Shown here one piece after another: positions 42,713-42,872 of a stretch of 64,000 nt of DNA. Below the pieces are notes generated by a model. The model saw nothing but the letters and a program-made list of their open reading frames with translations. It had not been told where the DNA came from and did not search any database. The stretch lies in IMG/VR virus record IMGVR_UViG_3300013121_000005, positions 299,485 through 363,484 of that record, one strand, 5' to 3'. This DNA is from a virus (Duplodnaviria > Caudoviricetes). The first letter of the stretch is position 1. Each line of letters opens with the position of its first letter. Made by a program: the position numbers and the translations under genes.

Positions 42713-42872
42713 GAAGCCATGCTGAAAGAAACTGGACAGTCGCCCTTCGATTTTCCCATCTACGGGTAGGCGAAGGGTATGTTCCGTCAGGTGATCAGCC
42801 TACTGGTTGAGGTTCCTAACCTTGGCCTTCGGTTAAAGAGTCCTATTGTCCAGCTTCTTTCAACACAGCTTC
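42713..42872 (-). ncRNA. structured ncRNA, copy 1 of a two-copy family
   Basis: 26-bp closing stem (4 G-U on minus strand); starts 6 nt after a class-A -10 box; homologous to 63409..63560. Confidence 0.8.

Follow-up and report, generated by a model that had tools for sequence, protein, structure and literature searches.

Two paralogous genes for an undescribed structured RNA in a jumbo-phage genome, and a sister RNA with a similar stalk in three related phages

The final 64 kb of a linear IMG/VR virus record of 363,484 bp (completeness 76% by CheckV), hereafter the window, contains two paralogous genes for one small structured RNA of about 155 nt. The RNA belongs to an undescribed family without a match among known families; its general kind is familiar. 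Copy A (160 nt; 42713..42872, minus strand) and copy B (152 nt; 63409..63560, plus strand) lie on opposite strands about 21 kb apart, at the positions where an earlier note made from the sequence had placed them. They show 81% column identity on alignment, score 183 and 170.5 bits respectively with model R1, and are the sole two sites in the 363,484-bp record by BLAST, motif scans and model R1. The known range is narrow: the A/B type comes from one phage, and a sister type described below comes from three.

In both copies a long closing stem, the stalk (P1), closes three arms (P2, P3 and P4), which is the four-way junction on a long stem that had been drawn from the sequence. The stalk of copy A pairs RNA positions 1-26 (42847..42872, minus; UUGAAAGA at RNA positions 10-17) with positions 135-160 (42713..42738, minus; containing UCUUUCAG) in 26 contiguous pairs, 22 Watson-Crick and four G-U. 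The stalk of copy B joins 63409..63435 and 63534..63560 (both plus), which contain UUGAAAGA and UCUUUCAG, respectively, in 26-27 pairs, of which two or three are G-U. A-C and transversion mismatches are absent from the two stalks, in agreement with the closing stem of 26-27 bp first described, whose mismatches were said to be only G-U on the promoter strand. Hairpin P2 (42810..42844, minus, in copy A; 63436..63469, plus, in copy B) is a 7-bp stem with an AGG/CCU extension and a loop of 9 nt, which is GAAGGCCAA in copy A and AAAGCGCUA, with the 6-nt palindrome AGCGCU, in copy B. It reads UUUAACC/GGUUAGG in copy A and UCUAACU/AGUUAGG in copy B, one pair being altered on both sides, the compensatory change noticed earlier in this hairpin (hairpin 1). 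P3 is a variable arm with the 7-nt loop CUGAUCA in copy A (42784..42806, minus), identical in the relatives' RNA, and the stem CCCUAU/AUAGGG in copy B (63473..63488, plus); the two can be compared as hairpins only, their sequences being non-alignable. P4 (42743..42777, minus; 63493..63529, plus) is an irregular hairpin with ACCC-N6-GGGAAA in both copies. This motif of the earlier hairpin 3 is present, but its outer helix has two possible registers, between which two sequences do not decide; RNAalifold recovers P1, P2 and the tip of P4, and offers the second register for outer P4.

The minimum free energies are -69.7 (copy A) and -69.3 kcal/mol (copy B), and copy A constrained to the common architecture folds at -66.0 kcal/mol, 3.7 kcal/mol above its own minimum. 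The strings reported to be common to the two copies are all found in both: AGCUG..UUGAAAGA..CUG in the stalk, UAGGACU, AACCUYAACC, AUAC, ACCC-N6-GGGAAA and CGA. Junction and loop strings are identical between the copies, and stalk pairs and P3 have drifted, a pattern typical of functional RNA.

The folds exceed chance expectation (z = -6.5 for copy A and -9.1 for copy B; 0 of 200 shuffles fold equally well). All 42 pairs placed in both copies hold, with 83 of 83 pair cells paired, and seven changes are two-sided, six in P1 and one in P2; only three of 500 shuffles match the observed pairing and two-sided changes. When the 3' partners are slid by 1-3 columns, pairing falls to 27-53% and the two-sided changes vanish. 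Covariation in the cargo, the part borne by the stalk, amounts to two or three pairs because there are only two A/B-type sequences. The signal is also strand-specific. The reverse complements fold worse, at -63.6 against -69.7 kcal/mol for copy A and -56.3 against -69.3 kcal/mol for copy B, a sense-strand advantage of 6 and 13 kcal/mol, and the 6-7 non-Watson-Crick stalk positions are all G-U on the gene-sense strand and A-C on the opposite one. Because every such pair is G-U on the gene-sense strand, the elements are read as RNA and not as a DNA repeat, and for copies A and B the RNA reading is far better supported. The marks of a DNA MITE are missing: no target-site duplication occurs at the flanks (TTACT / CTGTG for copy A, AAAGG / ACTAA for copy B), there are only two copies, and the stalk mismatches are G-U on one strand only. 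The conclusion of the earlier note that this is a conserved, strand-specific structured RNA without a known family is thus upheld. A small conserved open reading frame within the element was also considered and rejected, as the frames, read from the sequence, differ between copies A and B and no shared frame crosses the element.

Comparison of copies A and B with the 4227 covariance models of Rfam 15 gave no credible match, as expected for the unrecognised family first proposed, and the whole window has no match to Rfam 15 at gathering scores. At E <= 10, copy A matches only a 12-nt fragment of a TMV pseudoknot, copy B matches CRISPR-DR47 (20 bits, gathering score 39) and two plant/animal miRNA models (14-18 against 88-90 bits), and the sister RNA of contig L157 matches none. 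Further A/B-type copies were sought more widely. Model R1 detected nothing in 98 loci around homologues of RlaP, DUF6573 and the 118-aa protein (about 1 Mb of related loci), in three related jumbo-phage records or in L157-L159; blastn of copies A and B against GenBank phages and the pattern TAGGACT-N14-26-GTTAGGAACCTYAACC in GTDB genomes both gave 0 matches. The GTTAGGAACCTYAACC pattern occurs 24 times in IMG/VR, always without the flanking motifs, and AGGAACCTYAACC-N20-50-ACCC-N6-GGGAAA occurs three times in JGI metagenomes, in coding sequence and at sites none of which is scored by R1.

The closest relatives of this phage, reached via homologues of RlaP (up to 79% identity) and DUF6573 (up to 86%), include three that carry what we call the sister RNA, itself an undescribed structured RNA. 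It is found at 11165-11334 (plus, 170 nt) in L157 and at 10900-11069 (plus, 170 nt) in L158, in both cases 0.5-0.8 kb downstream of DUF6573, a gene that copy A likewise follows, and at 13538-13704 (minus, 167 nt) in L061, 1.4 kb from RlaP. Model R2, built from the L157 and L158 sequences, scores the L061 RNA at 71.8 bits (E = 6e-14). Across the three sequences 22 of the 58 pairs are changed on both sides while 97.6% of cells are paired, a result reached by none of 500 shuffles. The sister RNA combines a long stalk and an invariant CUGAUCA loop with a three-way junction that bears a nested branch, where copies A and B have a four-way junction. What it has in common with copies A and B is a stalk box, YUGARRG/CYYUCAG, including the same U-G (UUGAGAGG/CUCUCAG and CUGAAGGG/CCUUCAG; CUGAAGGG is the box of L158 and CUGAAAGG that of L061), together with the string AGGAACCU, proximity to DUF6573 or RlaP, the same promoter-like motif and GAAGCU start in L157, and, shared with copy A, the 7-nt CUGAUCA loop on a covarying stem.

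A descriptor anchored on the box finds exactly five RNAs (A, B, L157, L158 and L061) in about 1.4 Mb. None of the five has an Rfam match. Neither R1 nor R2 detects the RNAs of the other model, and for that reason we take the stalk to be shared and the cargo to be either different or beyond alignment; for the same reason the stalk similarity could reflect convergence or, alternatively, shared promoter-box sequence. The two-copy family of the earlier note therefore stands for the A/B type, of which there are two sequences, but the stalk also occurs in three related phages, on an RNA of a second type. The setting of the sister RNA varies: in L157 it lies behind the promoter-like motif, in L158 it comes straight after a gene, and in L061 it sits where an operon ends; the genes beside it differ among the relatives. 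Two exact sister-RNA patterns retrieved nothing real from IMG/VR, and one of them also nothing from GTDB genomes; two further DUF6573 contigs (L163 and L164) have no match to R2 or to the box-anchored stalk search.

Each copy in the window stands just behind a variant of a two-box motif, gTTGA(A/G)(G/A)-N13-TTCGTTGA(A/G)AGA (in short form gTTGARR-N13-TTCGTTGARAGA), with at least 15 instances in the window. The variant before copy A (42877..42905, minus; TTGAAG-N13-TTCGTTGAGT) ends 4 nt before the stalk, and that before copy B (63367..63396, plus; TTGAGA-N13-TTCGTTTAGGT) ends 12 nt before it; others are at 21687, 21943, 24205, 27230, 28104, 28904, 29194, 29837, 52493 and 60626 on the plus strand and at 41842, 38622, 31935, 15921, 7467 and 6677 on the minus strand. 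A plain sigma-70 consensus scan gave no match upstream of copies A and B. What had been called a class-A promoter is thus a recurrent phage-specific motif and not a sigma-70 consensus, and is promoter-like by sequence only. An ATG lies 2-7 nt past most instances, which would make leaderless or nearly leaderless mRNAs. The 8-mer of the second box, TTGAAAGA, recurs unchanged as the conserved block that both stalks have in their 5' strand. Several instances have their first box within a GC-rich hairpin, either in its loop or in its stem.

The surroundings of the two copies differ. Copy A is preceded by a DUF6573 gene (42960..43364, minus), a gene order common with L157 and L158, and followed after 32 nt by a gene for a 179-aa protein of no known family (42141..42680, minus). 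Copy B lies 0.36 kb downstream of the gene for the RNA-repair nucleotidyltransferase RlaP (60895..63045, plus), a neighbourhood common with L061, and 13 nt upstream of a gene for a 118-aa protein of a phage-wide hypothetical family (63574..63930, plus). The 179-aa and 118-aa proteins are unrelated (BLASTP E = 10), as was claimed for the adjoining genes. No terminator-like site was found after either copy, and homologues of the two genes elsewhere are without such a leader. At L030:2740-3000 the 118-aa-gene homologue (67% identity) is preceded by an apparent tRNA gene, judged by eye, and not by a stalked RNA.

The phage encodes several proteins concerned with RNA. A 587-aa protein (genome 298824-300587, minus; its N-terminal part is encoded at window 3-1103) has an RNB (RNase II/R) domain and two dsRNA-binding domains, and the same fusion is seen in the relative L062 (597 aa). 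A Ro60-like gene outside the window (genome 1831-3495, plus) matches vWA_Ro60 at 64.8 bits and TROVE weakly. It is located at the contig end opposite to RlaP and copy B, the latter being 440 nt from its own end, and because Ro60 and RlaP are 1.2 kb apart in L061, the two contig ends may adjoin in the real genome. Neither a phage-encoded RNase III nor RtcB was found in the phage. No RVT_1 match exists in the 363-kb record, while positive controls matched, and the retron-like reading once suggested is rejected for want of a reverse transcriptase. RlaP itself is 716 aa long, compared with about 390 aa for plain homologues, and has an insert at about residues 281-630 that looks like an intein with a homing endonuclease, because several homologues carry LAGLIDADG_3 and the insert starts at an invariant Cys. 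In L062 and L064, RlaP lies between homologues of window genes 6074-6646 and 5548-5946 (window 1-14332 compared); in this phage it is about 55 kb from that position, and the RlaP gene has therefore moved. Two other repeats attracted attention. At genome 5230-5361 (plus, outside the window) GAAGCCUGGG can pair with one or the other of two complements that lie about 50 and about 110 nt downstream; this region, close to the Ro60 gene, may act as a switch between alternative structures, and as an alternative-pairing region of another kind it was rejected as a member of the stalked family. At window 9529-9816, an intergenic region by an HNH-like gene, nested perfect palindromes with 17-18 bp arms 123-203 nt apart pair equally well on either strand.

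We tentatively put first the reading that copies A and B are excised small RNAs made of a stalk and a cargo, which a dsRNA nuclease would cut out of phage transcripts and whose cargo would bind a protein or dimerise; we regard this reading as a serious possibility, somewhat short of probable. Transcription, cleavage, partner and dimerisation are all steps that we infer. Transcription would start at the stalk base or a few nucleotides before it, from the phage-specific promoter, and, there being no terminator after the element, would read on into the following gene. Since there is no intrinsic terminator and the next start codon is only 32 nt (copy A) or 13 nt (copy B) away, the RNA would have to be cut free to act alone. 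The 26 contiguous pairs in both copies provide the stretch of at least about 20 bp of uninterrupted dsRNA that RNase III needs, and the uninterrupted stalk would be a substrate for a double-strand-specific ribonuclease, the host RNase III being the default candidate. The conserved box within the stalk suggests sequence-specific recognition by the nuclease or another dsRNA binder, and the phage RNB exoribonuclease with its two dsRNA-binding domains is an alternative candidate for binding the stalk.

Cleavage in the stalk would free a stable RNA of about 110-135 nt from the downstream mRNA, and the freed four-way junction would be the functional cargo, most likely a protein-binding one, with UAGGACU, AGGAACCUYAACC, AUAC and ACCC-N6-GGGAAA as its conserved unpaired nucleotides. 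The cargo may also pair with a second copy of itself via self-complementary loops, namely GGCC and UGAUCA in copy A and AGCGCU in copy B. The P2 loops carry GGCC (copy A) and GCGC within AGCGCU (copy B) at the same loop position, a two-base swap that keeps self-complementarity, and together with the UGAUCA loops they hint at kissing-loop dimers; one 6-nt palindrome per interior of about 105 nt is near chance (about 1.6 expected), and only the placement in loops is unusual. The stalk would be a reusable module, borne in related phages on other cargo. A self-contained RNA is preferred to a leader of one gene because the stalk is kept in three transcript positions and the neighbours differ; the same three positions of the sister RNAs lend support to the RNase III-processed sRNA, which is the best fit among the mechanisms that the earlier note had suggested.

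A 26-bp stem at the 5' end could equally stabilise an mRNA, and an unlikely, though by no means far-fetched, alternative is that the element is a cis-acting 5' leader: the stalk would stay on the mRNA, or an RNase III cut would mature it, and the stability or translation of the next gene would be set in this way. Both copies indeed have a promoter-like motif before them, a start codon 13-32 nt after them and no terminator, and given that most other motif instances have an ATG within 2-7 nt, these two exceptional leaders may carry regulation. However, the two downstream genes are unrelated, their homologues in other phages are without the element, the sister RNA is also found between genes and at an operon end, and a 26-bp stalk leaves no obvious alternative fold to act as a switch. 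The cis-regulatory suggestion is accordingly weakened in its strictly gene-specific form, the downstream genes being unrelated and different in relatives, and is retained as a general cis leader.

The presence of a Ro60-like protein in the phage, and of RlaP so close to copy B, raises the rather improbable alternative of a Y-RNA-like partner of the phage Ro60 and RNA-repair proteins, in which one protein would grip the stalk and another factor, for instance the RNB exonuclease, would be recruited or gated by the variable cargo. A 6.6-kb stretch of L061 contains the Ro60 gene, RlaP and the sister RNA (the sister RNA is 4.7 kb from Ro60), and a fixed stalk with a changeable cargo is the design of Y RNAs. 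Against it, none of the Y RNA models gives a match at E <= 10, the perfectly paired stalk has no bulged helix, ARAGORN detects no tRNA-like module in the window, and copy A and the L157 and L158 RNAs are not near Ro60 or RlaP. Identity with Y RNA was rejected on the uninterrupted stalk, which has no Ro60-binding bulge, and on the failure of the Y RNA models. A broader scheme, speculative and in our judgement improbable, is that of a jumbo-phage lineage with modular RNAs, in which the stalk box UGARRG/YYUCA would be a handle for a phage protein (the RNB protein or the Ro60/RlaP set), and exchangeable cargos, of which the A/B four-way junction and the relatives' CUGAUCA-loop module are known so far, would direct or restrain that protein and self-associate via palindromic loops, a counterpart of Y RNA particles.

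The identity of the stalk 8-mer TTGAAAGA with the downstream box of the motif, and two copies on opposite strands each directly behind that motif, recall from background knowledge the layout of putL/putR and nutL/nutR. It is conceivable, if distinctly improbable, that the elements are promoter-proximal transcription elements like HK022 putL/putR or the sigma-dependent pause of lambda PR', in which the promoter-recognition factor would be engaged once more by TTGAAAGA (about +10 to +17) and the nascent fold would then modify the polymerase to pass terminators. This fits poorly with the sister RNAs of L158 and L061, which are not promoter-proximal and have different boxes (CUGAAGGG and CUGAAAGG), with the next promoter-like motif lying only two genes past copy A, at 41842, with no terminator-like site in between, and with a size twice that of put RNA and a different fold. 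Identity with HK022 put RNA was itself rejected, the element being promoter-proximal in A, B and L157 but not in L158 or L061.

A decoy RNA, whether a promoter mimic trapping RNA polymerase in the manner of 6S, a CRISPR-repeat mimic (an anti-CRISPR RNA) or a mimic of the 16S rRNA 3' end, is very improbable. The promoter-box sequence does occur in the stalk, but within a perfect duplex with no open bubble; Rfam 6S has no match, and the next promoter-box-like string, UAGGAC, is by sequence 12 nt on and not 17, so that the 6S-like decoy of the earlier note is not borne out. The CRISPR-DR47 match of copy B (E = 0.2) is far under the gathering score and absent from copy A, and the RNA anti-CRISPR was rejected. 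The collinear similarity between copy A and the final 60 nt of the E. coli 16S rRNA (p about 0.02-0.03) was tested after the fact and is not significant in B, L157 and L061 (p = 0.18-0.63), and this mimic too was rejected. Two further identities were tried and discarded: a CsrA-type sponge, as the 4-5 GGA motifs lie in stems and junctions and not in loops, and phi29 pRNA, given no match to the Rfam pRNA model and a four-way junction here. Least tenable of all, to the point of being scarcely credible, is an element acting at the DNA level (a cruciform, an origin, a packaging signal, or a MITE bounded by terminal inverted repeats of 26 bp). A long inverted repeat in two copies 21 kb apart on opposite strands would speak for it; against it stand stalk mismatches that are all G-T on the gene-sense strand, the 6-13 kcal/mol better fold of that strand, the flanks without target-site duplication, a copy number of only two and interior hairpins that covary.

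Few phage non-coding RNAs are known to us, and almost none from uncultured jumbo phages. This lineage is rich in RNA biology, with Ro60, RlaP, a dsRBD-bearing exonuclease and a tRNA array, and two undescribed RNA families with a common stalk, one of them (the sister RNA) with 22 covarying pairs across only three genomes, offer a concrete target for the study of RNA handling during infection by such phages. If the stalk is a protein handle, these would be a second example, after the Y RNAs, of adaptor RNAs whose stem is fixed and whose module varies; if it is only an RNase III site, they would still be a clean new structured RNA, of an ordinary kind.

Several known systems share parts of this design. 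The phi29 pRNA, known to our knowledge only from small phi29-like phages, likewise has a long 5'/3' helix plus inter-molecular loop contacts, but it has a three-way junction where copies A and B have a four-way one, and dimerisation here is putative. The dimerisation loop (DIS) of HIV-1 consists of two purines, a 6-nt palindrome and an A, and the 9-nt P2 loop of copy B, AA-AGCGCU-A, has the same layout. The putL/putR antiterminator RNAs of HK022 also come as two related copies per phage genome, on opposite strands and in the leader just behind a promoter; they differ in being about 70 nt long, with two stem-loops and no closing stalk, and the relatives' sister RNAs are not promoter-proximal. 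In Y RNAs, including bacterial YrlA, the 5' and 3' ends pair into a stem of conserved sequence around an inner module that varies; Ro60 binds a bulged helix of the Y RNA, and a bacterial Y RNA tethers PNPase to Rsr. Ro60 and RNA-repair genes are present in the same phage here and within a few kb of the RNA in L061, whereas copies A and B have no Rfam Y model match, no bulged Ro-binding helix and no tRNA-like domain, and one copy is not near Ro60. The last comparison is with RNase III processing stalks, such as the stems of rRNA precursors and the R sites of the T7 early region, in which a long duplex is formed from sequences flanking a functional RNA inside a longer transcript. RNase III needs a duplex of roughly 20 bp, which the 26-bp duplex of copies A and B exceeds, and with no terminator after either copy, release would need processing. 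The stalk of copies A and B differs in having a conserved sequence box and a purine/pyrimidine tract, neither of which, as far as we know, RNase III sites need, and the cargo is neither rRNA nor an mRNA end, with a cleavage that is putative here. In a longer transcript without a terminator, a perfect duplex of 26 bp is the classic layout of an RNase III processing stalk.
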